NCBI GenBank assembly: GCA_964187785.1
Contig: OZ076409.1
Span: 48,796,001-48,860,000 of the forward strand
Reading direction: 5' to 3'
Length of the DNA: 64,000 nt
Source of the DNA: Amphiscolops sp. MND2022
Lineage: Eukaryota
Part shown: positions 1-63,331 of the stretch, piece by piece
How the letters are laid out: every line of letters starts with the position of its first letter
Numbering within the stretch: position 1 is the first letter of the stretch
Position numbers and translations under genes: made by a program
Notes under the pieces: model-generated
The model's input: only the letters and a program-made list of their open reading frames with translations
Told to the model about the DNA's origin: nothing
The model's database searches: none

Positions 1-319
1 GCAACTCAGCCAATCGGCTCTGCATTTCTTTGTTCACTGTTGAGAAGATCTCGGGTATCTGCGGTTGATACTTGACTTTGATCGCATTTTCGACTGCCTT
101 AATGAGCCGATTCCTCCTGTTTATGGCATCTGTTCGACTTAGCAGTAAATCTGCTATCTGCTTGTCGTCAACATTGCTAGTTAGGTTCTCATCAATTTCT
201 TTAACAGTCTTACCGTGTTCAACAGCTGCATTCCAATAACTCAACGTTTGGGCTTTGTCAGCAGAGTTCTTCAGAAAGTTTTCGATTTTGTTGATATCGA
301 ACCGTTTTGGTTCTGCCAT
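1..319 (-). CDS. N-terminus of a putative Gag/ORF1 protein (3'-partial, 106 codons visible)
   Basis: Manual translation: MAEPKRFDINKIENFLKNSADKAQTLSYWNAAVEHGKTVKEIDENLTSNVDDKQIADLLLSRTDAINRRNRLIKAVENAIKVKYQPQIPEIFSTVNKEMQSRLAEL..., with no stop before the window edge. An in-frame TGA lies shortly upstream of the ATG (341-343). Charged, helical-looking composition. The Gag call rests on position downstream of LTR and PBS only. Confidence 0.7.
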   Translation of the reverse strand, partial: MAEPKRFDINKIENFLKNSADKAQTLSYWNAAVEHGKTVKEIDENLTSNVDDKQIADLLLSRTDAINRRNRLIKAVENAIKVKYQPQIPEIFSTVNKEMQSRLAEL

Positions 320-358
320 CTCTTCTCTTGTCGATTGAACTCAGTTCCCAAAGTCACA

Positions 359-550
359 ATAGCCCAATCTCCCAGAGACACCGTAGCCCAATCTCCCAGA
401 GACACAAAAGCCCAATCTCCCGGAGACACAGTAGCCCAATCTCCCAGAGACACGGTAGCCCAATCTCCCAGAGACACAGTAGCCCAATCTCCCAGAGACA
501 CAGTAGTCCAATCTCCCAGAGACACAGTAGCCCAAACTCCCAGAGACACA
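359..550. repeat. 24-bp minisatellite, 8 copies (GTAGCCCAATCTCCCAGAGACACA)
   Basis: Directly visible tandem copies with 0-3 substitutions each; it explains the repetitive ORFs in several frames at 215-736. Confidence 0.97.
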
Positions 551-592
551 TTAGAGACTCCAAGATCCAGACACTTGTTCTTCTTGGGCAAT

Positions 593-695
593 CTTCTCAG
601 TTGTCCACCAACGAGTCGTCTTCTTCTAGTCCGGGTCGTCCACCAACGAGTTGTCCGGGTCGGCGGACCAACGAGTTGTCCGGGTCGGCGGACCA
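593..695 (-). promoter_or_regulatory. Primer-binding site (tRNA-Tyr-like) in a tandem array of four TGGT-led units
   Basis: Minus strand: TGGTCCGCCGACCCGGACAACTCGT twice (695-671, 670-646), then TGGTGGACGACCCGGACTAGAAGAAGACGACTCGT (645-611), then TGGTGGACAACTGAGAAG (610-593). The first unit starts 2 nt after ...GTTACA and resembles the tRNA-Tyr PBS TGGTCCTTCGAGCCGGA. Confidence 0.65.
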
Positions 696-697
696 AA

Positions 698-1617
698 TGT
701 AACGGCTGCTTGCCCTTATCCTGCGCTGAGGCTTGACAAGCTTTACGCCGCCCTGATCCGTTGCTTAGTGCTGTGGACCGTCACTAAACAATTGCTGGTT
801 TTCGTGTTTTAAAGGACTGTATCTTTTGACTGGTGGGTCCGATGTGACCCGTGGAATCTCCAGCGATTCCTCTTGCACTGAATTGGACCCGATGTGATCC
901 TGCACACACTTCCCTCACGGTATCTTCACGCGCTCCGGCTCTCCGACTATGAGAGTAGCTACTTGGTCGCTCTGACTCCAGCGAAAAGTTGTGAAGATTG
1001 AGAAGTTGATTAATTAGTCTCTTGGTCCTGAGACCCAACTTGACTATAGCTATTCAGTGGAAAAAATCTCTATCTAATAATGGTATAAATCTGGTTTACA
1101 ATTTTACAGTAAATATAGAACAAATATCAGTTGAAACATGTGGTATAAATAAATGACATTTAAAGCATAAAATGAAGTTATTGGCTATGTAAACAAAGCA
1201 CATGGTGGTTTTGGCTTGTTGGTCAGGTGGGTTAGAAAGTATGTTTACACTATGTAAATATCATTAATTTCAACAGAGTTACATTCTAATGTGGTCATAT
1301 AGGTAAATAACAAAGTTTACATTTTTGTCTCAATGACCTTGAATACTACACATGTGAGGGGTAAAGGGGGTTATAATGGGTGGATGATCTTGAAACTTGG
1401 CTGGTGTGTTTGTGTTTTGTATTTGCATATGGGTGCCAAGTTTCGTGGCTCTAGGATTAGTATTCTTGGAAAAAACCCATTTGGGGGGGGTTTCCATTTT
1501 TGTCACACTTGATATTTCTTCAAAATTTCTTCTGAGTTTTTAGGAGTTTAAGTTCTTGTATCTCAACCAGCATGTTCTGAATCGAGTTTCTTTGCCTTTT
1601 GATGACTGGCGCCAACA
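698..1617 (-). repeat. Putative 5' LTR (920 bp, possibly including an internal insertion)
   Basis: Minus strand starts TGTTGGCG exactly where the 84-bp satellite is cut (1617/1618) and ends GCCGTTACA next to the PBS. The second LTR is outside the window, so the outer boundary is unconfirmed. Confidence 0.55.
1055..1511. mobile_element. Possible decayed non-autonomous DNA element inside the LTR
   Basis: AT-rich block with weak inverted ends (CAGTGGAAAAAA / TTTTTGTCACACTTG), a possible TATT duplication, and a GATCTTGAAACTTGG...TGCCAAGTTTCGTGGCTCTAGG segment of a type common in invertebrate non-autonomous repeats. Confidence 0.25.
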
Positions 1618-3716
1618 GTACTGTATATTGGAAGATAGATCGAATATAAAACATATACGACCCTGTTCATCGAATCTTATCTACTTTAGACCTATATTGT
1701 GGTGCTGTATATTGAAAGACTGATCGCTTATAAAAGCAATACCATCGTGTTAATTGAGTCTTAGCTACATTAATCCTTTAGTATGGTACTGTAAAATGAA
1801 ATATAGATCGAATATGAGTCCTATACAACTTTGTTCATTAAATCGTAGCTACTTTAGAGCTATATTATGGTACTATATATTGAAAGATCGATCGAATATA
1901 AAACCTATACGATGGTGTTAACTGAATCTTGGCTACTTTAGACCTATAGTTTTGTACTCTATATTGAAAGATAGATCAAATACAAGTTCTTTACAGCTGT
2001 GTTCAATGAATCCTAGCTACTTTAATCCTATAGTATGGTACTGTGAAAAGAAAGATAGATCGAATATGAGTCCTATAAAACTTTGTTCATAAAATCTTAG
2101 CTACTTTAGACCTTTAGTATGGTACTGTATATTGAAAGATTTATAGAATAGAAAACCTATACAAACGTGGTAATTGAATCTTAGCTACTTTAGACCTATG
2201 GTTTTGTACTGTATATTGAAAGATAAATCGAATATAAGTACTTTACAGCTGTGTTCATTGAATCTTAGCTACTTTAGTCCTATTGTATGGTACTGTAATA
2301 TGAAAGACAGATCAAAGATAACTCCTATACAACTGGGTTCTTTAAATCTTAGCTACTTTAGAACTAAATTTTAGTACTGTATATTGAAAAATTGATCGAA
2401 AATAAAAGCTATACGAACGTGGTAATAGAATCTTAGCTACTTTAGACACCTATAGTCTTGTACTGTATATTGAAAGATAGATCGATAAGATAGATCGATA
2501 GTATAAGTCCTATCCGAAAGTTTGCATCGAATCTTAGCTACCTTAGACGTATAGTATTGTACTCTATATTGAATGATAGATCCAATATATGTCCTATACG
2601 TCTATGTTCATTGAAACTTAGCTACTTTAGACTTTCATTATGGTACTGTATATTGAAAGATTGATCGAATATAAAACCTATACGATCGTGTTAATTGAAT
2701 CTTTGCTACTTTAAACCTACAAAATGGGACTGTATATCGAAAGAATTATCAAATATAAGTCCTATACGACCGTTTTTATTGAATCTTACCTTTCTGTACT
2801 CTATATAGAATTAAAGATCCAATATACGTCCTATACGTCTATGTTCATCGAATCTTAGCTACTTTAGACTTCTTTTATGGTACTGTATATTGAAATAATG
2901 ATCGAATATAAAAGCTATACGAACGTGTTAATTGAATCTCAGCTACTTTAGACCTATAGTTTTGTACTAAATTTTGAAAGATAGATCGAATATAAGTCCT
3001 ATCCGAAAGTGATCATTGGATCTTAGCTACTTTATAGTATGGAACTGTATATTGAAAGATAGATCAAGTATAAGTCTTACACGGCCATGTTCATCGAAAA
3101 TTAGCTACATTACATCTATAATTTGGTGATGTATTTTGAAAGATATATCAAACGTAAGTCCTCTACGGCTGTGATCATTGAATCGTAGCTACTTTAGAGC
3201 TATAGTATGGTACTGTATATGGAAAGGTTGATCAAATATGAAACCCATACGATTGTTTTCACCTAATATCTACTTTAGACCTATATTATGGTACTGTATA
3301 TTGAACGATTGATCGAATATCAAAGCTATACGATCGTGTTAATTGAATCTTAGCTACTTTAGACCTATAGTACTGTACTGTATAATGAAGATAGATCGAA
3401 TACAAGTCCTATACGAAAGTGTTCATCGAATCTCAGCTACTTTAAAATATAGAACCGTTTATTGAACATTAGCTCGAATGTATGTCCAATACTACCGTGC
3501 TCATCTAATCCTAATTACTTTCGAAGTATTTGATAATTAGGATTGTAATTAGATAGTGTAGTAATGTATTTTGAAAGACAGATCAAATATAAGTCCTATA
3601 CGACCGTGTTCATTGAATGTTAGCAACTTTAAACCTATAATATGGTACTGTATATTGAAAGATAGATCAAACATAAGTCCTATACAGCTGTGTTTATAGA
3701 ATCTCAGTTACTTTAG
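1618..3716 (+). repeat. 84-bp satellite, left copy (about 25 diverged units)
   Basis: CTGTATATTG-like anchor at 1621, 1705 and 1789 (period 84). Approximate consensus TAGTATGGTACTGTATATTGAAAGATAGATCGAATATAAGTCCTATACGACCGTGTTCATTGAATCTTAGCTACTTTAGACCTA. Confidence 0.95.
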
Positions 3717-6700
3717 TATTGACTGCATAGCTCACATGAAAACCGTCTGAAATGGTCAAAATCCGAATTATTGAATCAAAAAAGTCAAGTCATCGTGAAA
3801 GGACTGTCAGTATAAAAACACTTTTGTGGAAAAAGTGGTTCAATTGATTCATTCAAAAAATGACGTGCTTCGATTACGCCCAATTTGAAAAGAATCTGGA
3901 ATTATGCTCGGCAAACAAATTAATTTTGACAGCGTTTTTCTTTAGAAAAGAGCGACTATAGTCATGGTTTTCCAAAAATAGTTCTTGTAAAATTTCTTCA
4001 ATTTTTGTGAAGTCCCTTTGGACAATGTACATCCTGCATTTGAAATGTAAAGGAGTCTCCTTCGTCAAGCACACAACAGGATTTACGGCCAACCGGTTAT
4101 AACGGTTTCCGGATTTAACGTGTATTGGAAATGCATTCCCAAGATATTCAGAGTTTATACAAATTCAACTGAGGAATCCCCCTCTGGTTTTTTTAGCACT
4201 GTGAGACCTTATTATTTTCAATATATTCAAACAGCTGTTATATCTTCAATTATTTATCATTCTTCGGGCTGTTTTGACTCTGTGCGTTTTTTTTCCGAAA
4301 CTTTCATTTGATAAAAGGGTATGTTCCTGCTTTCCTATCTGTTTTCGGATTGAGGAAAGTAGTTTCTAAGCTGAAAGTTCCTTTTTCGGCACTATGACAC
4401 TTTCCCGAAAAAAAAATCGAAATAATATTCAAAAAACATCTTTTGTAATTCCAGTTGGGGAAACTGTGGTTTCCGAGCCTTATGTGTAGTCTTTGGGGTA
4501 TTTTTTGGCACTGAGGTTTGAATTGACTTTGTATTTATCTGCTAATCAATGAAAAGAAACGCAAGCTAAAACAAAACATATACAATCATCAATTAACAGA
4601 TTGTTAAAAGAGATATTTTTTCACAACAACAAGATATCCAATTCGATCTGGATTGATTCAGTATTTGAAGAAACAAAATTCAGAATTACAGCTTGATGAT
4701 CCTGTCAAAGTGCTGTATCTTTTATAAGTTCCATTCCAACCCGTTCTCTTCCAAAGTTCTGTTCAACGTTTTTCAGGTTTTCCTGGAAGGAGTGGGGTTT
4801 GTCTTGTCTCTGATTGGCCGTTTGGGTGAATGGTATCCGGTAAAGGGAACTGATCTGTCAATCTCTGATTGCCATCATGCATAAAATCAACAACAGCACA
4901 GAATTTAAATATTTCAAATTTTGCTCGAGGAATGAAAAAAACTTCAGGTTCGAAAAGTGTTCCTCGCTTTCGTATTGCTCACGTCTTCATTTTGTTCAAG
5001 AGATCCAACTTTTGTTTTGCTTTCAATTATCGGTCATTTCGTCTTCCAAATTGGAAACGTTTTGATTAAATTTCTAAAAATTAAGGTACATCAAAAAGAA
5101 TTCTACTCAGAGATTCCTTTAAAAATTAATCTCGGAAAAACAATTATTCTGTGTGAACAAACACTGTGATTCTTCAAAACTAAAAAGTTTCTTACTACAA
5201 AAAGTACTTTCTAAAGTTGTGAAATACTCTTCAACAAAATGTTCAAAACAATAATCATATCAATTCCGATTAAGAGACAGTTTTCACTTCCATCAGAGCC
5301 TTCACTGTTTTTCAATCAAATTATTTTAAAAAGTTTTCACTGGTTCATTTCTCATGTTTGTTCAAAACATTCAAGGCATGTCAATTATTCATAGGGTAAA
5401 ATTGATACCATGAAGGTAAAAAAGTGTTCATGAGTCATGTTATTTAATTTTTGAAAAAAAGGGTCACCTTATTATAGGTTGAGTACAAAATCATAATCTG
5501 AAAGATATATTTCTTAAGAAACGAGTGAAAAATATGGAATCTACTTTATTTTTTCAATTTCTTTTTCAATAAGTGTCGATACGTTTATTTTCTCATGTTT
5601 TTGTAAGAGCAAACAAGTTTTAGCCAAATGATAAACGAAATATTATTTTTCTGCAAAAATGTTAGGAAAGTGTGTTCTAAAATACATTGTTTGTTTTTTT
5701 CTTCCAATTTTCATTCAGAGAGCGGGAAGAACGTGTTTGGAGGATTGTCTGAATGTCACACGGGATTAAGGTTTTGTTGGGACACTGGTGTTGATTCTAC
5801 AGTCCTGTGCGTATAGCAACCGTTTTCAGTCCAAGTCAAAACTTCACTCAGAGGGCTAAATCTTTTAAACAGTAGTGAAAACATGTATAGGACATTTTAC
5901 ATCAAACGGAATCAAAGCCCTTATGAATTCGTACTGCATTTTCTCAAGGGTTGTTTACGAGCTCAGGCGATGGTGGGATTGACAAACCAGGAAAGTCTCT
6001 GGACAGTTCGGACGCTCCTCAGAAATGAATTCAGTTAAAACATTTTTTTTTTCGATTTTTCCTTCAACATTTTCCCTGGTGCAGATATAGTCATTGTCAG
6101 TTTTCTTTGAAAAGTCTGCAGCGAATGTTTTATTCAAGGTCTGGTTGGAGTAGTCGGTTGCGCGAAACATTGCTTTGGTACTAGTTGCACGGGTAAATGG
6201 TGGTTCGAACCCGGTGACGACGTTCACGGGTTATGGAATAGATACCACTGTGATTGTTGATGTCTTCAACTCCCCTCCTGTTCAGGGAGATTGCAATAGT
6301 CTTCAAAGCAATATTCTCTCCCCCAACATTACTCGCGCAGCATGTCTATTCTAAACAGACTTTTTAAAATAAAATTTCATCCATCAAAAACATCCTGCAA
6401 ATTTGAAGACTGTAAAACGCTTGCTCAACAGTTTGAAATAGTGTCGCGGCTTGAAAAGGCAAAACGTAATAAACGTTAGGTTTTTCGAAATTGCTTTATC
6501 AAAATTACTGTTATTTTTGTTCTTTTCATACTCAACGTTGTCTACGTTCTTTTCATATCATTGTCGTCATACTTCATAGCATATCATCAGTCCAATCTTG
6601 CAAAATGTTGCCAATTTGTAGACTTTGGTGAAGCCTAGACAACAGCTGTTTGTACAACTCTACAACAGTAATCTTGAGATGCATCAAAGCATCTACGTCT

Positions 6701-7351
6701 TTGTAATTTTGGACCATTGAATATTCGGGTGTGTCACTTGCAAAAGTTGTAACTCTCTTTTTCATTTTCAATTTTGTTTGTGCTTTGGAATCAAGCAAAT
6801 ATTATCCACGTTTAACATTCGATGAAAGCACACATGTAGAAAAAATACATTTTTCTTGTTGAAAGATCAATTCGCCAAAAAAGTAGTTTTTGCACAAATA
6901 CTATCAAAGATTTAGGATATGCTGAGGTTCAAACCTGGATAACGGCAGTTCCCACTGAAAGGAGATAAGGCAAGAGAAATGGGTTTTGTGCTATGGGCTA
7001 CCTTGTCACTGGAAAAAGTGCCTTCTTTCAAACTCCGCTGTTGCTTGGCACAATGGAAAAGACCGCTCCAGTTTCGTTGGAGCATCAGTTTTGTCAACGA
7101 AAAAAGTCTAGTACCGGTGGAGGAGTCATTTTGTACTCGACACACGCTGCGTGTTTTTTACGTTTGGTTACGTCATCTTCGTGTCGAATCTATTACGTAA
7201 CGTTTGGGAAGAAAGTTATCGCGAACGTTACGTAGGAAATTCGACACGAAGATTGAATGCATGCGACTGTCTCTGGCAAGACTTTCAGAGTCGCTGCTCA
7301 TGTTTCGAATTTCAATTTGATTTGTATGTTGGAATTAAGCAAATGTTTTTC
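1618..7351. repeat. Left arm of a giant inverted repeat
   Basis: Reverse complement of 7699-~13091. Mirrored ORFs include 4120..4311(+) / 10735..10926(-), 6574..6798(-) / 8252..8476(+) and 6979..7200(+) / 7850..8071(-). Confidence 0.97.
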
Positions 7352-7428
7352 TTCTTCTGTTCTTTCTTTGAAAGACATTCGTGAAAAACATTTGCTTAAT
7401 TCCAACATACAAATCAAATTGAAATTCG

Positions 7429-7628
7429 NNNNNNNNNNNNNNNNNNNNNNNNNNNNNNNNNNNNNNNNNNNNNNNNNNNNNNNNNNNNNNNNNNNNNNNN
7501 NNNNNNNNNNNNNNNNNNNNNNNNNNNNNNNNNNNNNNNNNNNNNNNNNNNNNNNNNNNNNNNNNNNNNNNNNNNNNNNNNNNNNNNNNNNNNNNNNNNN
7601 NNNNNNNNNNNNNNNNNNNNNNNNNNNN
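7429..7628. other. 200-N scaffold gap at the palindrome apex
   Basis: Run of 200 N. 7313-7428 is repeated in the same orientation at 7629-7744 (116 bp, one mismatch). Confidence 0.98.
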
Positions 7629-7698
7629 CAATTTGATTTGTATGTTGGAATAAAGCAAATGTTTTTCTTCTTCTGTTCTTTCTTTGAAAGACATTCGT

Positions 7699-10600
7699 GA
7701 AAAACATTTGCTTAATTCCAACATACAAATCAAATTGAAATTCGAAACATGAGCAGCGACTCTGAGAGTCTTGCCAGAGACAGTCGCATGCATTCAATCT
7801 TCGTGTCGAATGTCCCACGTAACGTTCACGATAACTTTCTTCCCAAACGTTACGTAATAGATTTGACACGAAGATGACGTAACCAAACGTAAAAAACACG
7901 CAGCGTGTGTCGAGTACAAAATGACTCCTCCACCGGTACTAGACTTTTTTCGTTGACAAAACTGATGCTCCAACGAAATTGGAGCGGTCTTTTCCATCGT
8001 GCCAAGCAACAGCGGAGTTTGAAAGAAGGCACTTTTTCCAGTGACAAGGTAGCCCATAGCACAAAACCCATTTCTCTTGCCTTATCTCCTTTCAGTGGGA
8101 ACTGCCGTTATCCAGGTTTGAACCTCAGCATATCCTAAATCTTTGATAGTATTTGTGCAAAAACTACTTTTTTGGCGAATTGATCTTTCAACAAGAAAAA
8201 TGTATTTTTTCTACATGTGTGCTTTCATCGAATGTTAAACGTGGATAATATTTGCTTGATTCCAAAGCACAAACAAAATTGAAAATGAAAAAGAGAGTAA
8301 CAACTTTTGCAAGTGACACACCCAAAAATTCAATGGTTCAAAATGACAAAGACGTAGATGCTTTGATGCATCTCAAGATTACTGTTGTAGAGTTGTACAA
8401 ACAGCTGTTGTCTAGGCTTGACCAAAGTCTACAAATTGGCAACATTTTGCAAGATTGGACTGATGATATGCTATGAAGTATGACGACAATGATATGAAAA
8501 GAACGTAGACAACGTTGAGTATGAAAAGAACAAAAATAACAGTAATTTCGATAAAGCAATTTCAAAAAACCTAACGTTTATTACGTTTTGCCTTTTCAAG
8601 CCGCGACACTATTTCAAACTGTTGAGCAAGCGTTTTACAGTCTTCAAACTTTCAGGATGTTTTTGATGGATGAAATTTTATTTTAAAAAGTCGGTTCAGA
8701 GTAGACATGCTGCGCGAGTAATGTTGGAGGAGAGAATATTGCTTTGAAGACTATTGCAATCTCCCTGAACAGGAGGGGGTTGAAGACATCAACAATCACA
8801 GTGGTATCTATTCCATAACCCGTGAACGCCGTCACCGGGTTCAAACCGCCATATACCCGTGCAACTAGTACCAAAGCAATCTTTCGCGCAACCGACTACT
8901 CCAACCAGACCTTGAATAAAACATTCGCTGCAGCCTTTTCAAAGAAAACTGACAATGACTATATCTGCACCGGGGAAAATGTTGAAGGAAAATTCGAAAA
9001 AAAAATGTTTTAACTGAATTCATTTCTGAGGAGCGTTCGAAATGTCCAGAGACTTTCCTGGTCTGTCAATCCCACCATCGCCTGAGCTCGTAAACAACCC
9101 TTGAGAAAATGCAGTACGAATTCATAAGGGCTTGGATTTCGTTTCATGTAAAATGTCCTATACATGTTTTCACTACTGTTTAAAAGATTTAGCCCTCTGA
9201 GTGAAATTTTGACTTGGACTGAAAACGGTTGCTATACGCACACTACTGTAGAATCAAAACCAGTGTCCCAACAAAACCTTAATCCCGTGTGACATTCAGA
9301 CAATCCTCCAAACACGTTCTTCCCGCTCTCCGAATGAAAATTGGAAGAAAAAAACAAACAATGTATTTTAGAACACACTTTCCTAACATTTTTGCAGAAA
9401 AATAATATTTCGTTTATCATTTGGCTAAAACTTGTTTGCTCTTACAAAAACATGAGAAAATAAACGTATCGACACATATAGAAAAAGAAATTGAAAAAAT
9501 AAAGTAGATTCCATATTTTTCACTCGTTTCTTAAGAAATATATCTTTCAGATTATGATTTTGTACTCAACCTATAATAAAGTGATACTTTTTTTCAAAAA
9601 TTAAATAACATGACTCATGAACACTTTTTTACCTTCATGGTATCAATTTTACCCTATGAATAATTGACATGCCTTGAATGTTTTGAATAAACATGTGAAA
9701 TGAACCAGTGAAAACTTTTTAAAATAATTTGATTGAAAAACAGTGAAGGCTCTGATGAAAGTGAAAACTGTCTCTTAATCGGAATTGATATGATTATTGT
9801 TTTGAACATTTTGATGAAGAGTATTTCACAACTTTGGAAAGTACTTATTGTAGTAAGAAACTTTTTAGTTTTAAGAATCACAGTGATTGTTCACACAGAA
9901 TAATTCTTTTTCCGAGATTAATTTTTAAAGGAATCTCTGAGTAGAATTCTTTTTGATGTACCTTAATTTTTAGAAATTTAATCAAAACGTTTGCAATTTG
10001 GAAGACGAAATGACCGATAATTGAAAACAAAACAAAAGTTGGATCTCTTGAACAAAATGAAGACGTGAGCAATACGAAAGCGAGGAACACTTTTCGAATC
10101 TGAAGTTTTTTTCATTCCTCGAGCAAAATTTGAAATAATTAAATTCTGTGCTGTTGTTGATTTTATGCATGATGGCAACCAGAGATTGACAGATCAGTTC
10201 CCTTTACCGGATACCATTCACCTAAACGGCCAATCAGAGACAAGACAAACCCCACTCCTTCCAGGAAAACCTGAAAGACGTTGAACAGAACTTTGGAAGA
10301 GAACGGGTTGGAATGGAACTTATAAAAGATATAGTACTTTGAAAGGATCATCAAGCTGTAATTCTGAATTTTGTTTCTTCAAATACTGAATCAGTCCAAA
10401 TCGAATTGGATATCTTGTTGTTGTGAAAAAATATCTCTTTTAACAATCTGTTAATTGATGATTGTATATGTTTTGTTTTAGCTTGCGTTTCTTTTCATTG
10501 ATTAGCAGATAAATACAAAGTCAATTCAAACCTCAGTGCCAAAAAATACCCCAAAGACTACACATAAGGCTCGGAAACCACAGTTTCCCCAACTGGAATT

Positions 10601-13600
10601 ACAAAAGATCTTTTTTGAATATTAATTCGATTTTTTTTCGGGAAAGTGTCATAGTGCCGAAAAAGGAACTTTCAGCTTAGAAACTACTTTCCTCAATCCG
10701 AAAACAAATAGGAAAGCAGGAACATACCCTTTTATCAAATGAAAGTTTCGGAAAAAAAACGCACAGAGTCAAAACAGCCCGAAGAGTGATACATAATTGA
10801 AGATATAACAGCTGTTTGATTACATTGAAAAGAATAAGGTCTCACAGTGCTAAAAAAACCAGAGGGGGATTCCTCAGTTGAATTTGTATAAACTCTGAAT
10901 ATCTTGGGAATGCATTTCCAATACACGTTATATCCGGTACAGTTATAACCGGTTGGCTGTAAATCCTGTTGTGTGCTTGACGAAGGAGACTCCTTTACAT
11001 TTCAAATGCAGGATGTACATTGCCCAAAGGGACAATTGAACAAAATTGAAGAATTTTTACCAGAACTATTTTTGGAAAACCATGACTATAGTCGCTCTTT
11101 TCTAAAGAAAAACGCTGTCAAAATTAATTTGTTTGCCGAGAAGAATTCCACATTCTTTTCAAATTGGGCGCAATCGAAGCATGTCATATTTTGAATGAAT
11201 CAATGAACCACTTTTTCCACAAAAGTGTTTTTATACTGACAGTCCTTTCATGATGACTTGACTTTTTTTGATTCAATAATTCGGATTTTGACCATTTCAG
11301 ACGGTTTTCATGTGAGCTATGCAGTCAATACTAAAGTAACTGAGATTCTATAAACACAGCTGTATAGGACTTATGTTTGATCTATCTTTCAATATACAGT
11401 ACCTTATTATAGTTTTGAAGTTGCTAACATTCAATGAACACGGTCGTATAGGACTTGTATTCGATCTATCTTTCGTTATACAGTACAGTACTATAGCTCT
11501 AAAGTAGCTACGATTCAATGAACACAGCCGTAGAGGACTTATGTTTGATATATCTTTCAATATACATCACCAAATTAAAGGTGTAATGTAGCTAAATTTC
11601 GATGAACTTGGCCGTGTAAGACTTATATTTGATCTATCTTTCAATATACAGTTCCATACTATAAAGTAGCTAAGATTCAATGAACACTTTCGGATAGGAC
11701 TTATATTTGATCTATCTTTCAAAATACAATACAAAACTATAGTTCTAAAGTAGCTGAGATTCAATTAACACGTTCGTATAGCTTCTATATTCGATCATTA
11801 TTTCAATATACAGTACCATAAAATAAGTCTAAAGTAGCTAAAATTCGATGAACATAGACGTATAGGACGTATATTGGATCTATAATTCTATATAGAGTAC
11901 AAACTTTACGTCTAAGAAAGGTAAGATTCAATGAAAACGGTCGTATAGGACTTATATTTGATATTTCTTTCGATATACAGTGCCATTTTGTAGGTTTAAA
12001 GTAGCAAAGATTCAATTAACACAATCGTATAGGTTTTATATTCGATCAATCTTTCAATATACAGTACCATAATGAAAGTCTAAAGTAGCTAAGTTTCAAT
12101 GAACATAGACGTATAGGACATACATTGGATCTATCATTCAATATAGAGTACAATACTATACGTCTAAGGTAGCTAAGATTCGATGCAAACTTTCGGATAG
12201 GACTTATACTATCGATCTATCTTATCGATCTATCTATCAATTTACAGTACAAGACTATAGGGGTCTAAAGTAGCTAAGATTCAATTACCACGTTCGTATA
12301 GCTTTTATTTTCGATCAATTTTTCAATATACAGTACCAAAATATAGGTCTAAAGTAGCTAAGATTTAAAGAACCCAGTTGTATAGGAGTTATCTTTGATC
12401 TGTCTTTCATATTACAGTACCATACAATAGGACTAAAGTAGCTAAGATTCATTGAACACAGCTGTAAAGTACTTATATTCGATCTATCTTTCAATATACA
12501 GTACAAAACCATAGGTCTGAAGTAGCTAAGATTCAATTACCACGTTCGTATAGGTTTTATATTCTATAAATCTTTCAATATACAGTACCATACTAAAGGT
12601 CTAAAGTAGCTAAGATTTTATGAACAAAGTTGTATAGGACTCATATTCGATCTATCTTTCTTTTCACAGTACCATACTATAGGATTAAAGTAGCTAGGAT
12701 TCATTGAACACAGCTGCAAAGAACTTGTATTCGATCTATCTTTCAATATAGAGTACAAAACTATAGGTCTAAAGTAGCTAAGATTCAATTAACACCATCG
12801 TATAGGTTTTATATTCGATCGATCTTTCAATATATAGTACCATAATATAGCTCTAAAGTAGCTACGATTTAATGAACAAAGTTGTATAGGACTCATATTC
12901 GATCTATATTTCATTTTACAGTACCATACTAAAGGATTAATGTAGCTAAGACTCAATTAACACGATGGTATTGCTTTTATAAGCGATCAGTCTTTCAATA
13001 TACAGCACCATAATCTAGGTCTAAACTAGCTAAGATTCGATGAACAGGGTCGTATATGTTTTATATTCGATCTATCTTTCAATATACAGTACCATACTAT
13101 AAGTCCGAAGTAGATAAGATTCAATGAACATAGACGTATAGGACTTATATTGGATCTATCATTCTATACAGAGTACAATACTTCACGTCTAAGGTAGGTA
13201 CGATTTGATGAGAACGGTCGTATAGGACTCATATTTGACCTATCTTTCGATATACAGTACTATAATATAGGTCTAAAGTAGCTAAGATTTAATTAATGAA
13301 CAAAGTTGTATAGGACTCATATTTGATCTATCTTTCAAATTACAGTACCTTACTATAGGACTAAAGTAGCTAAGATTCGTTGAATACAGCTGTAAAGGAC
13401 TTATAATTGATCTATCTTCCAATATACCGTACCATACTATAGGTCTAAAGTAGCGGAGATTCGATGAACAGGGTCGTATAAGTTTTATATTCGATCTATC
13501 GTTCTATATACAGTTCCATACTATAAGTGTAAAGTAGCTAAGATTCATTGAACATAGGCGTATAGGACTTTGATTGGATCTATCGGACAAAATACAGTTC

Positions 13601-14717
13601 AAAACTATACGTCTAAAGTAGCTAAGATTCGATGAACACAGCTGTAAACGACTTATATTTGATCTATTTTTCATTATACAGTACAATACTATAGGTCTAA
13701 AGTTGCTGAGATTCAATTAACAAGATCGTATAGTTTTATATTCGAACAATCTTCCAACATACAGAACCGTACTATAGGTCTAAAGTAGCTACGATTCGTT
13801 GAACACAGCTGTAAAGGACTTATAAATGATCTATCTTCCAATATACCGTACCATACTATAGGTCTAAAGTAACTGAGACTCGATGAACAGGGTCGTATGT
13901 TTTATATTCGATCTATCTTTCTATAGACAGTATTAAACTATAAGTTTAAAGTAGCTAAGATTCGATGAACACAGCTGTAAACGACTTATTTTTGATCTAT
14001 TTTTCCTTATACAGTACAATACTATAGGTCTAAAGTTGCTAAGATTCAATTAACAAGATCGTATAGTTTTTACATTCGAACAATCTTCCAACATACAGTA
14101 CCGTACTATATGTCTAAAGTAGCTAAGATTCGTTGAACACAGCTGTAAAGGACTTACAATTGATCTATCTTCCGATATACCGTACCATACTATAGGTCTA
14201 AAGTAGCTGAGATTCGATGAACAGGGTCGTATGTTTTATATTTGATCTATCTTTCTATAGACAGTACCAAACTATAAGTTTAAAGTAGCTAAGATTCATT
14301 GAACATAGGCGTATAGGACTTTTATTGGATCTATCGGTCAATATACAGTACAATACTATACGTCTAAGGTAGCTAAGATTCGATGAACACAGCTGTAAAC
14401 GACTTATATTCGATCTATTTTCCATTATACAGTACAATACTATAGGTCTAAAGTAGCTAAGGTTCAATTAACAAGATCGTATAGCTTTTATATTCGAAAA
14501 ATCTTCCAACATACAGTACCGTACTATAGGTCTAAAGTAGCTAAGATTCGATCAACATGGTCGTGTAGGACTTATCTTCGATCTATATTTCAAAATACAA
14601 TACAATACTGTAGGGCTAAAGTAGCTAAGATTCAATGAACACAGTCGCGTAGAACTGATATTCGATCTATATTTCAAAATACGGTATATTACTATAGGAT
14701 CTCTGTAGAGATCCTAG
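7699..14717. repeat. Right arm of the giant inverted repeat (matches the left arm to ~13091; the satellite continues to ~14696)
   Basis: Colinear reverse complement of the left arm, including private variants such as the GATCGATAAGATAGATCGAT duplication (~2480 and ~12220). Confidence 0.93.
11331..14696 (-). repeat. 84-bp satellite, right (inverted) copy, about 40 units with local 4-, 5- and 9-mer higher-order repeats
   Basis: Reverse complement of the left array. Near-identical ORFs at 13504 and 14255 are 751 bp apart (about 9 units). The ACAGCTGTAAAGGACTTA variant recurs at spacings of about 420 and 334 bp. Confidence 0.95.
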
Positions 14718-14718
14718 T
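14695..14718 (+). other. Terminal hairpin plus CTAG|T (Helitron-like 3' end)
   Basis: TAGGATCTCT-GT-AGAGATCCTA perfect 10-bp inverted repeat overlapping CTAG and followed by T, exactly where the satellite stops. Confidence 0.45.
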
Positions 14719-15309
14719 AGAAAATAGTAGCTATTTCAGGGGCTACTCGGCGCATTTGTAAGAAAAAGTATGTCCTATTTCGTGTCCGACACTTCGTTAT
14801 TCAGCACTGTGAAAACTCTTTCAGTATTTTATACTGAGAAAAGTTATCCTTTTTACAGCATTTCAGCATCTTTTCCATCAATTTCTATAGCAATTTTCAC
14901 AGTTTGCAGAACTCATTTCCATGTTACTCGGTGTAAAAAAATGGCGTTGTGTAAAGGTAGATATATTTTTGGTGGTTGATGGTTGGAATGATAAAGAATT
15001 TTATCATTACGCAAATGAAGGTAACTTCAGGGAAATTTTATTCATAGAAATCACGCATCAATAAAGGTCACTAGCATCAAAAGGAACTAAGTAGAAGCAC
15101 ATTCATTTCATTGTTTGTAGATGAAAGCACCTTTTATTGATCGTTCGTGTTTCCTTTTATCACGGCCGCAATTTCCATTCTTAACAAACTGCTCCTTCCA
15201 GTTTTTTATTACTTTCCAGCACGCAAAGGTAAGGAAATTTCCTTTCATTGCCTGAAATAGAAACAAAAAAAATTTCCAGGCTCGTATTTTTCAAGGTTGT
15301 GTATATTTG

Positions 15310-15610
15310 TTTCGGTTTCTAGTCGGCTCTTCGTGAGTATTTTTGACCTTCGGTTTCGTCGTTGTGTCGCAATCATGACGTCATTCGGGAGTTAGTGTTA
15401 TGACCATGTTTGGTTACTCACTCAACTCCCCCCCCCCGCTTATAATGCCACGTACTTCTACTACTCACGTGCGGTGCAGTGAAAGTTGCCGATACGTAAC
15501 AACCCAACAGCTGAAGAAAAGTGAGCTTCCGGGCTCACTCTAAGATGGAGAAACTTGAATGTCCCCATTAAACTTCACTACCTCATCTACTTTCCTATGT
15601 TCCGGCGCTA
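15310..15610. promoter_or_regulatory. CpG-richer, promoter-like patch
   Basis: ATGACGTCAT (CRE-type, 15375-15384), poly-C then TATAAT (15441), CACGTG (15466), hairpin AGTGAGC-TTCCGG-GCTCACT (15520-15539). No downstream ORF found. Confidence 0.2.
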
Positions 15611-60214: not shown

Positions 60215-60510
60215 GGTAAGCTTCTGTCAGTCAAGCTGCGTAATCTGAGTAAAATGGTAAAATGGTCATTCAGCGTAAGTTAGTCAAGACGGTCTCAGCT
60301 TCAACGGTGTAGCAAAATCAACGCGCGTAATGGAAAATTGTGCAAGTTAGTCAAAACACGTAATTAGAAAAAAGCGGAAGTTAGTCCAAAAATACTCTTT
60401 TTCGTAAGTCAGTCAAAACGTTGACTAACTTCCACTTTTTGCAAATTGAGGGACTCCTATACTTCCGAAAAGTGGAATGTGGTCAAAGTTTTGACTAACT
60501 TACACCATGT
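60215..60510. mobile_element. Decayed MITE-like element with repeated AAGTTAGTCAA motif
   Basis: Direct copies near 60277, 60344, 60378 and 60406, then inverted copies (TTGACTAACTT) at 60421 and ~60491; it abuts the abrupt end of the satellite. Confidence 0.5.
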
Positions 60511-61263: not shown

Positions 61264-61551
61264 GGGGATGTTGGCGCGGTGGATAAGTCCATCGGATGTG
61301 ACTGTTAGTCACTGAGTACCACAGGATCGATCCCAGCCATTAGCACACTGGCGAATCGAAACATACAACTCTTACAAAGATACCCTTCATATTTGGCAGC
61401 TCATGTCTCCGAATATTCCACATTGAAGGTATCAGCACCGCTGCAACATCCTTTTTGATGAGAGGAACTCCAAGGTGTGACCTTGTTCTGTGCCGCAACT
61501 TTGTGTGCCCCACAAATGATGCAATGATGATTGCTAATGATTGCAATGATT
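61264..61551 (+). mobile_element. tRNA-derived SINE
   Basis: Pol III A-box-like TGGCGCGGTGG (61272-61282), B-box-like GGATCGATCCC (61324-61334), anticodon-arm-like GTGA-CTGTTAG-TCAC, a body repeated nearby, and an (AATGATTGC)-like simple-repeat tail (61515-61551). Confidence 0.7.
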
Positions 61552-61611
61552 AGAGATGGCGAGATACTAGTATCCAAATTCTGGCCCCCATTCCTGGCTG
61601 CCAATGATATT

Positions 61612-61730
61612 CATAAAACTCTCACAAAGACACCCTTCCTATTCGGCGTCTCATGTCGCCGAATTTTCCACATTGATGGTATTAACACCGCCGAAATATC
61701 CTTTTTGATGAGAGGAACTTTGATGGTGAA
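61612..61730 (+). repeat. Second, diverged copy of the SINE body core
   Basis: CATAAAACTCTCACAAAGACACCCTTCC...TTCCACATTGATGGTATTAACACCGCC...TTTTTGATGAGAGGAACT aligns by eye to 61362-61470. Confidence 0.8.
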
Positions 61731-61969
61731 TTCCCAAATAACATAAGAGCAAATAACATAAAAACGAAATTAGTTTCAAATAACATAAAAATGAAATGAG
61801 TTTGACTAAACATAAAAATAAAATTGTTTACGAGAAGGTTTTAGCTGTCAAAAGCATTCACAATTCAAAAGATTCACTCAAAAAAGTATGAAAATTACAA
61901 ATAAAATTTCGTGAGTTCGATTACTTAACCGGGTATTCGGTTTTATTTTTGTTATTTGAACCTAATTTT

Positions 61970-61970
<1 letters not shown>

Positions 61971-62018
<48 letters not shown>

Positions 62019-62141
62019 AAAATCCCACATTGAAGGTATCAACACCGCTGTAACATCCTTGTAGTAGTAGTATTAATAGTAGAAAATCCCACATTGAAGG
62101 TATTAACACCGCTGTAACATCCTTGTTGATGAGAGGAACTC
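61971..62141 (-). mobile_element. Probable non-LTR retroposon 3' end with (CTA)16 tail and a 64-bp tandem re-duplication
   Basis: (TAG)16 at 61971-62018 on +. AAAATCCCACATTGAAGGTAT(C/T)AACACCGCTGTAACATCCTTG at 62019 and 62083, each preceded by a TAG-type run. Confidence 0.55.
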
Positions 62142-62219
62142 TTGAATGTAAACTTCCTTAAAAAGTTTAGACTGGTCCGATTAACTGTTTAAACTGATTG
62201 ATTACACAAAAATAGTGTG

Positions 62220-62382
62220 AAGAATGTTTGTATCTCAAATTGAGATTCTCAATTCCAAACTCTCACTTTGAAAAAAATTAAATTTATGGTTTCTAGTTTG
62301 TATTCAACTTGAATACAAACTAGAAACCATCAATTTAATTTTTTTCAAAGTGAGAGTTTGGAATTGAGATACAAACATTCTT
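62220..62382. repeat. Near-perfect palindrome, 74-bp arms, 1-nt loop
   Basis: Centre GTATTCAA-C-TTGAATAC (62308); one mismatch plus a 14-bp insertion in the left arm. Confidence 0.95.
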
Positions 62383-62965: not shown

Positions 62966-63331
62966 ATGAGTAGGCATTGGATTTATTTGGAAATTACAGT
63001 AGTAGCAGAAGCATACAATAAAATATGGATACCATTTGGTTGATGGCTAGACAATACGGAAAAAAATACGGAAGAAGCGTTGAATATGTGAAAGTAAAAA
63101 CAGTCTTTACTTCTGAGTCAGAAATAAATACTGTTTTTATTTTCACATATTCAACGCTTCTTCCGTATTCTGAGAAGTACTGAGATTAGTGATTGTTAAT
63201 CGTGTCGCTTCTCAGAAACGTCAATTTAGCTAAGTATTGAATAATTTCTATCAAAATAGATATAAACTTATGTAAGGCGAAATATGGAGAAACATGACAT
63301 TTGGATACAAATAAATCCTAAGCCTACTCAT
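62966..63331. mobile_element. MITE-like element with 24-bp terminal inverted repeats
   Basis: ATGAGTAGGCATTGGATTTATTTG (62966-62989) versus CAAATAAATCCTAAGCCTACTCAT (63308-63331), 22/24 match. Confidence 0.6.
63065..63169. repeat. Near-perfect palindrome, 52-bp arms, 1-nt loop
   Basis: Centre TTCTGA-G-TCAGAA (63117); 49/52 positions pair. Confidence 0.95.

Follow-up and report, generated by a model that had tools for sequence, protein, structure and literature searches.

Evidence for a dispersed, non-coding and almost wholly palindromic element in the genome of Amphiscolops sp. MND2022

The window analysed here, 64,000 nucleotides of Amphiscolops sp. MND2022 (contig OZ076409.1 of assembly GCA_964187785.1, positions 48,796,001 to 48,860,000 of the forward strand), consists of AT-rich repeat DNA of animal type and carries a large inverted duplication, whose features are collected in Table 1. 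Two long arms, each made of a non-tandem inner domain and an outer array of 84-bp monomers, face each other around a 31-nt loop, the apex. We read this structure as one copy of a dispersed, non-coding and almost wholly palindromic element of about 14-16 kb, and that it is a real dispersed palindromic element appears to us very probable.

Table 1. Features of the palindromic element and of its borders, in window positions (LTR, long terminal repeat)
Feature	Position	Strand	Remarks
Young partial BEL/Pao LTR retrotransposon, inserted into the left 84-bp array	1-1617	-	Foreign to the element; hides the left terminus
Left 84-bp tandem array	1618-3716	+	Truncated at 1618 by the retrotransposon; in-register mirror of 11331-13092
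Left non-tandem, non-coding arm (inner domain)	3717-7351	+	No family match; multi-copy
Old diverged apex paralog	6759-6852	+	Stem, reverse-complement loop and ~11 bp; mirror at ~8198-8291
Inner hairpin	7175-7253		Arms of 35 nt (86%); mirrored at 7797-7875; site of rearrangement in other copies
31-nt loop (apex), first copy	7352-7382	+	Weak mini-hairpin with TTT tip, shuffle p=0.044
Left-contig sequence extending into the right arm	7383-7428	+	46 nt, 46/46 complementary to 7306-7351
200-N scaffold gap at the apex	7429-7628
Start of the right contig	7629-7698	+	39 nt of left stem and second loop copy, same orientation; assembly overlap
Right non-tandem arm	7699-11330	-	Inverted copy of 3717-7351
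Right 84-bp array	11331-14732	-	~40 monomers; arm-array join recurs in other copies (P0185, P0194)
10-bp-stem hairpin	14695-14716		Within the last monomer of the right 84-bp array
Candidate right terminus 1	14733-14747	-	AGTAGC inward; predicted length 14,129 bp if symmetric
Possible outer non-tandem domain, candidate terminus 2	14748-15465	-	AGTAGTAG inward; predicted length 15,565 bp if symmetric

The left arm, read outwards from 7351 to 3717, pairs with the right arm from 7699 to 11330, with 90 substitutions over 3,629 aligned bases (2.48%) and with indels of only 1-2 bases between the non-tandem parts. The 84-bp arrays mirror each other in register, monomer by monomer, and differ at 50 of 1,747 positions (2.9%); as the monomers are on average only ~77% alike, this correspondence is more than mere satellite likeness. 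Mismatches are evenly spread over 5.4 kb (dispersion p=0.36) and show no trend with distance from the apex. A preliminary description of this DNA, which had proposed arms of about 3.6 kb of non-tandem sequence plus an 84-bp satellite, differing by a few percent around a loop at 7352-7382, is borne out on these points, the non-tandem arms measuring 3.63 kb. The right array exceeds its left partner by ~1.6 kb (13093-14698) and the left array contains two extra blocks of 187 and 165 bp, so that symmetry up to the outer ends of the unit is not established. The mini-hairpin of the loop was also considered as a viral-type hairpin end and left aside as weak.

The arms are not joined head-to-head across the loop alone, as had been described earlier: in the assembly, the scaffold gap interrupts the tip and the apex is present twice, 7313-7428 being repeated at 7629-7744 over 116 nt with a single mismatch (7652 versus 7336). 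Both contigs stop 39-46 nt beyond the same 31-nt loop, within perfect arm sequence, and the loop has the same orientation in both. A same-orientation overlap of 116 nt is the pattern expected from a single palindrome broken at its tip. The true apex is most likely single, and the gap would have arisen because the assembly failed to cross it.

Other copies were sought by using as probes chance open reading frames (ORFs) called on other public contigs, and these copies are known from the predicted proteins alone. The ORF beside the apex gave 13 matches among 16 candidates; for the stretch between 2.2 and 3.3 kb away from the apex, 31 of 474 candidates matched. One whole frame compared with 1.84 billion representative proteins returned 31 matches, all of them other copies of the element except a spurious one. 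P0178, which has bacterial immunoglobulin-like repeats (24% identity), was judged spurious and left out of the count. The remaining 74 proteins all align with the arm, of which they together cover 96.5%; since they shift frame freely and match no family, they report DNA copies and not genes. Among the matches of the apex-ORF and 2.2-3.3-kb searches there are 37 distinct longest-contig sizes, three of them common to both; some may represent the same locus in different assemblies, and the copy number is for this reason given as tens rather than as an exact count. Direct scans were negative: metagenomes gave no match to the loop or to the satellite motif, viral contigs gave only one chance 19-nt match in an unrelated ORF, and the scan of genome contigs gave none. 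As exact sequences, none of the 10 ORFs of the window is in the protein collection.

Several of these proteins inform on the shape of the copies. P0124 and P0132, which share a longest contig of 816,877, both cross the stem and enter the loop, P0124 in its reverse and P0132 in its forward orientation; P0124 extends a further 17 nt, into the far stem. Over 82 codons, the two have in common four changes that are absent from the window arms. From the equal sizes of their longest contigs, proteins paired in this way apparently lie on one contig. P0123, P0129 and P0180 switch strand in mid-protein, an inward-reading arm being joined to an outward-reading arm with the centre lost, and parts on both strands are found in four of the 74 proteins (P0127 included). 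Together, the P0124/P0132 loop pair and the centre-deleted inverted junctions indicate that the palindrome is a trait of the family and not a haplotig join. P0127 and P0131 (both 123,988) look as though each came from one arm of a copy whose centre had moved to the inner hairpin; for P0131 this interpretation is weakened by another copy, P0191, which has a more symmetric hairpin. Within a few residues of 7226-7237, five of the 13 apex-ORF matches leave the arm or end. At the other extremity of the arm, P0185 crosses into the first monomer, and P0194 reaches a monomer that agrees with the one at 3236 in 14 of 15 residues; this places the satellite within the family. P0154 and P0158 (both with a longest contig of 12,916) represent two copies of the same arm stretch, possibly on a contig that is mostly one element, and P0189 and P0193 are far more diverged arm copies (51-58% identity) that point to an older subfamily.

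The probes thus show, although indirectly, that the element is dispersed, that other copies are palindromic, that the arm-satellite join is conserved and that centres were deleted in old copies. The preliminary description had spoken of an unusual foldback-like element and had suggested searching for palindromic apex copies elsewhere. The first idea gains support from the dispersed arm, the recurring arm-satellite join and another palindromic copy with the same loop; the search, made with the chance-ORF probes, gave P0124 and P0132, which pass through that loop in both orientations.

The two arms of a copy also resemble each other in their private changes. Those of the window share four of 77 residues that are absent or nearly so in 12 other copies (one of them being seen in one of the 12), and differ from each other at five of 77. 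Similarly, over 190 pairs compared at 65 residues the mean difference is 8.0, and the three pairs presumed to come each from a single copy show 3, 4 and 4 differences. Private sharing together with even divergence over 5.4 kb fits one event in which one arm was copied from the other.

Six-frame Pfam and PHROGs searches of the element gave no family, and in particular none of the Polinton/Maverick core genes (pPolB, integrase, ATPase, protease, capsids). Nor did family searches of the element show coding remnants of Rep/helicase or of NS/capsid, which leaves the earlier idea of a dimer of a rolling-circle or hairpin-ended element without coding support. ORFs derived from the copies (23 and 12) matched no family above the cut-off, and the Atlas search gave no usable match. 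With the standard code, the longest ORFs fall within the shuffle range. A 286-codon frame of the right arm (TGA read as W) exceeds the 95th percentile of the null and is closed in the left arm. The 11 Rfam matches are all sub-threshold microRNA models on the apex hairpin, and no ribosomal RNA genes were found in the arms. On these sequence comparisons, a coding potential of the element is rejected.

The outer ends are less clear, and the 'satellite-capped' ends of the preliminary description are not established. On the left, position 1618 is the junction of a BEL/Pao insertion and not an end of the element, whose true left end lies beyond the window. The insertion carries what we take to be a 5' LTR (~1617 to 698, TG...CA) and presumably a primer-binding site (PBS) from 695, both labels following general conventions, with a gag start at 319. 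The best match of its ORF (identity 100%, query coverage 94%) is the start of a 1,787-amino-acid BEL/Pao polyprotein with domains PF05380/PF00078/PF03564/PF17921, from a cluster of 255 members (212 matches among 504 candidates). Its leader contains a 24-bp tandem array at 346-554 and, at 629-696, a repeat of 25 bp through which the PBS-like site is present more than once. On the right, the 84-bp array fades at ~14732 and the terminus is perhaps 14747 or 15465. The AGTAGC at 14747 has a post hoc chance of ~0.01-0.06, the hexamer being also a satellite motif; AGTAGTAG at 15465 has one of ~0.03, likewise post hoc (8-mer in 1.2 kb). Both motifs are seen at one end only. Possibly, 14748-15465 is part of the element. 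Scans of viral contigs with both candidate ends gave no match. Adjoining the second candidate, 15375-15471 is GC-richer and contains a C-run, a TATA-like word and a 10-bp palindrome, presumably of CRE type; this stretch may represent a control region close to the end of the element or, alternatively, a promoter of the host.

A trace of the origin of the palindrome may be preserved within the arm itself, in the old apex paralog. Its stem matches the apex stem at 37 of 49 positions, and its loop matches at 20 of 31 in reverse orientation (1 in 100,000 shuffles) against 6 of 31 forward. Beyond ~11 bp past this loop no significant match was found (p=0.19), and we accordingly rejected an explanation of the paralog as an older long apex. 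Its polarity implies that the ancestor read stem, reverse loop and short repeat, and that the long second arm is derived. A single-armed ancestor would have folded back at the 11-bp inverted repeat with its 31-nt spacer and copied itself into a second arm. Wild-type yeast fold-backs, as described, likewise start from a short inverted repeat, with a 35-bp spacer instead of 31 nt, long spacers resisting Mre11 (PMC10622511), and long palindromes are reviewed as usually ending in centre deletion (PMC8701086), as in the asymmetric centre deletions of the derived copies here. The cases described in these two sources are single rearrangements, whereas we deal here with a spreading family. The earlier proposal of an old fold-back inversion is for its part not supported as a one-off event, the element being multi-copy and each copy having private changes common to its arms.

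To account for these features together, we propose that the element propagates by snap-back hairpin copying: one arm would be templated by the other, and insertions would start with matched arms that then drift apart. The enzymes would be supplied in trans, most likely by a helper Polinton/Maverick with its protein-primed polymerase and integrase. The 31-nt spacer would limit breakage, and broken copies would lose their centre asymmetrically. This reading explains the resetting of the arms, the tiny conserved loop and the size. Taken as a whole, with its non-autonomous element, hairpin copying and Polinton/Maverick-type helper, this proposal falls a little short of what we would call probable. 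More tentative is the view of the family as a gene-less snap-back satellite of Polinton/Maverick, with a loop (31 nt) that is among the shortest possible, many integrated copies that keep the record of the fold-back and an arm freshly copied at each insertion. The element is not an autonomous Maverick, as it lacks the core genes. Whether it belongs with Polintons or with Foldbacks hinges on its termini and target duplication, the latter being of 6 bp in Polintons and of 8-10 bp in Foldbacks.

Among the alternatives, an assembly artefact, in which two haplotigs or two paralogous single arms were scaffolded in inverted orientation, might be suspected from the 200-N gap lying exactly at the apex and from a 2.5% divergence that we take to be a plausible allelic distance. 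However, both contigs pass the loop into the mirror stem with one loop orientation, so that, artefact or not, the DNA contains a fold-back junction; for haplotigs joined in inverted orientation, the loop would have to be flipped between haplotypes and both contigs would have to end just beyond it. Moreover, direct duplications within the unbroken right contig diverge by 1.3-3.1%, so the divergence of the arms need not be allelic, and in another copy the loop is found in both orientations, on contigs of equal size. The inverted join of haplotigs, already named as a risk in the preliminary description, is made unlikely by the same-orientation overlap and by the other palindromic copies, and we judge the artefact as a whole decidedly improbable. 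Also improbable, if not quite to that degree, is a chromosomal fold-back inversion beside the 84-bp satellite, spread passively by segmental duplication or satellite-driven recombination. The fold-back seed in the apex paralog, the setting between satellites and the lack of a clear terminus in the window would suit it; the star-like differences among copies (mean of 8.0 of 65 residues) and their location on many large contigs speak against it, as do the private changes common to the arms of each copy, something that passive duplication would not yield. Helitrons end 3' in a hairpin followed by CTRR. Two units of a non-autonomous Helitron/Helentron carrying the 84-bp repeats centrally, or of some other element that replicates through a hairpin, might have joined head-to-head into a dimer, as the internal tandem array and the 10-bp-stem hairpin at the outer array end could suggest. 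This hairpin overlaps CTAG instead of preceding it and lies inside a monomer, after which satellite-like bases resume; no RepHel or parvovirus-type protein was found in searches of the element, and dimers should be exceptional, yet the palindromic form recurs. We regard such a dimer as very improbable.

An extreme non-autonomous cut-and-paste transposon of Foldback type (Mutator/FB, of the Tetris, Tm1 or Galileo kind) deserves more attention, even if we hold it rather unlikely. The arms would then be giant terminal inverted repeats homogenised by gap repair or gene conversion, the 84-bp array would provide transposase-binding sites, and the middle would have shrunk to 31 nt. Dispersed copies and the conserved arm-satellite join agree with this account, and Galileo copies are described as recruiting internal sequence into their repeats (PMC3573991). 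On the other hand, the longest repeats reported measure 1,735 bp in Tetris and 1,260 bp in Galileo, against at least 7 kb here, and family searches of the element gave no transposase remnant. Cut-and-paste alone would not reset the arms, yet their divergence is uniform over 5.4 kb and their private changes are paired.

Several observations weigh against the snap-back interpretation or the evidence on which it is built. A tandem outer domain, a unique inner domain and a non-coding middle match what is described for Tetris (PMC4079207). The private changes shared by arms could come from subfamily structure or gene conversion, and in the three presumed same-copy pairs only three of the six members have their partner as single nearest neighbour. 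One mismatch-free tract between the arms reaches 301 bp (p=0.034). Reading the other copies through proteins and pairing them by equal contig sizes is indirect. The single mismatch in the 116-nt overlap is compatible with halves from different haplotypes, and another copy was apparently assembled through its apex. Hairpins have been proposed to disturb long-read sequencing (preprint 10.64898/2026.07.13.738322), while the PacBio data presented in a review show no palindrome-linked drop in quality (PMC8701086); as these sources disagree on the effect of hairpins, the cause of the assembly break can only be inferred. The AGT end motifs were found post hoc, with chance odds of 0.01-0.33 depending on the word. 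Finally, no terminus pair, target duplication or helper element is seen in the window, the left terminus lying beyond it.

The fold-back Tc4 of Caenorhabditis elegans consists nearly entirely of two arms around a very short centre, as here, but measures ~1.6 kb and has no satellite domain. The Foldbacks Tetris (PMC4079207), Tm1 (PMC3169594) and Galileo (PMC3573991) are described as dispersed and non-coding, with long modular inverted repeats composed of a tandem-repeat outer and a unique inner domain and with many rearranged copies. All this echoes the present family, which differs from what is reported for them by the length of its arms (7 kb or more, where theirs do not exceed 1.7 kb) and by a middle of 31 nt that is conserved between copies. 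For Polinton/Maverick, one source gives sizes of 12.7-24.6 kb, within which the predicted 14.1 or 15.6 kb would fall, depending on an unproven terminus, and end motifs (AGT)2//(ACT)2 or (AG)3//(CT)3, of which (AGT)2 occurs at one candidate end here, found post hoc (PMC8097293). None of the eight core genes is present, and the whole element is an inverted repeat, whereas the Maverick repeats given there are of 46-1,447 bp. Snap-back defective viral genomes are presented as tiny-loop hairpins generated by polymerase copy-back and dependent on a helper, as we propose here; they are described mainly in RNA viruses, whereas here a chromosomal DNA family of many copies is concerned (PMC6140465). A record-level search of the open-access literature found no published account of a palindromic non-autonomous Polinton satellite.

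Other repeats occupy the rest of the window. A 185-bp satellite (370-bp dimer) extends over 15940-60200, with 242 of 242 monomer matches on one strand, and includes duplications in direct orientation (2.55 kb and 1 kb) that diverge by 1.3-3.1%. Three short palindromes resembling miniature inverted-repeat transposable elements are found at 62247-62369, 63065-63169 and 60404-60503 (97.6%, 93.3% and 76% self-complementary, respectively), and 61362-62145 holds several copies of a dispersed ~108-bp repeat around a (GTA)16 run at 61970-62018.

One would expect palindromes of several kb to be unstable when their spacer is this short; those described here nevertheless make up a family that spreads. 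If arms are indeed reset at insertion, their divergence would serve as an insertion clock, in the way of LTR pairs. The family would also provide a test of Polinton-type replication and, if it is indeed a Polinton/Maverick satellite, its copies would be a direct genomic record of a hairpin intermediate. The centre-deleted and re-centred copies constitute a natural data set on the destruction of palindromes in the germline. Finally, such elements can leave duplicated-apex gaps that resemble haplotig errors, and they may be purged from assemblies or missed.

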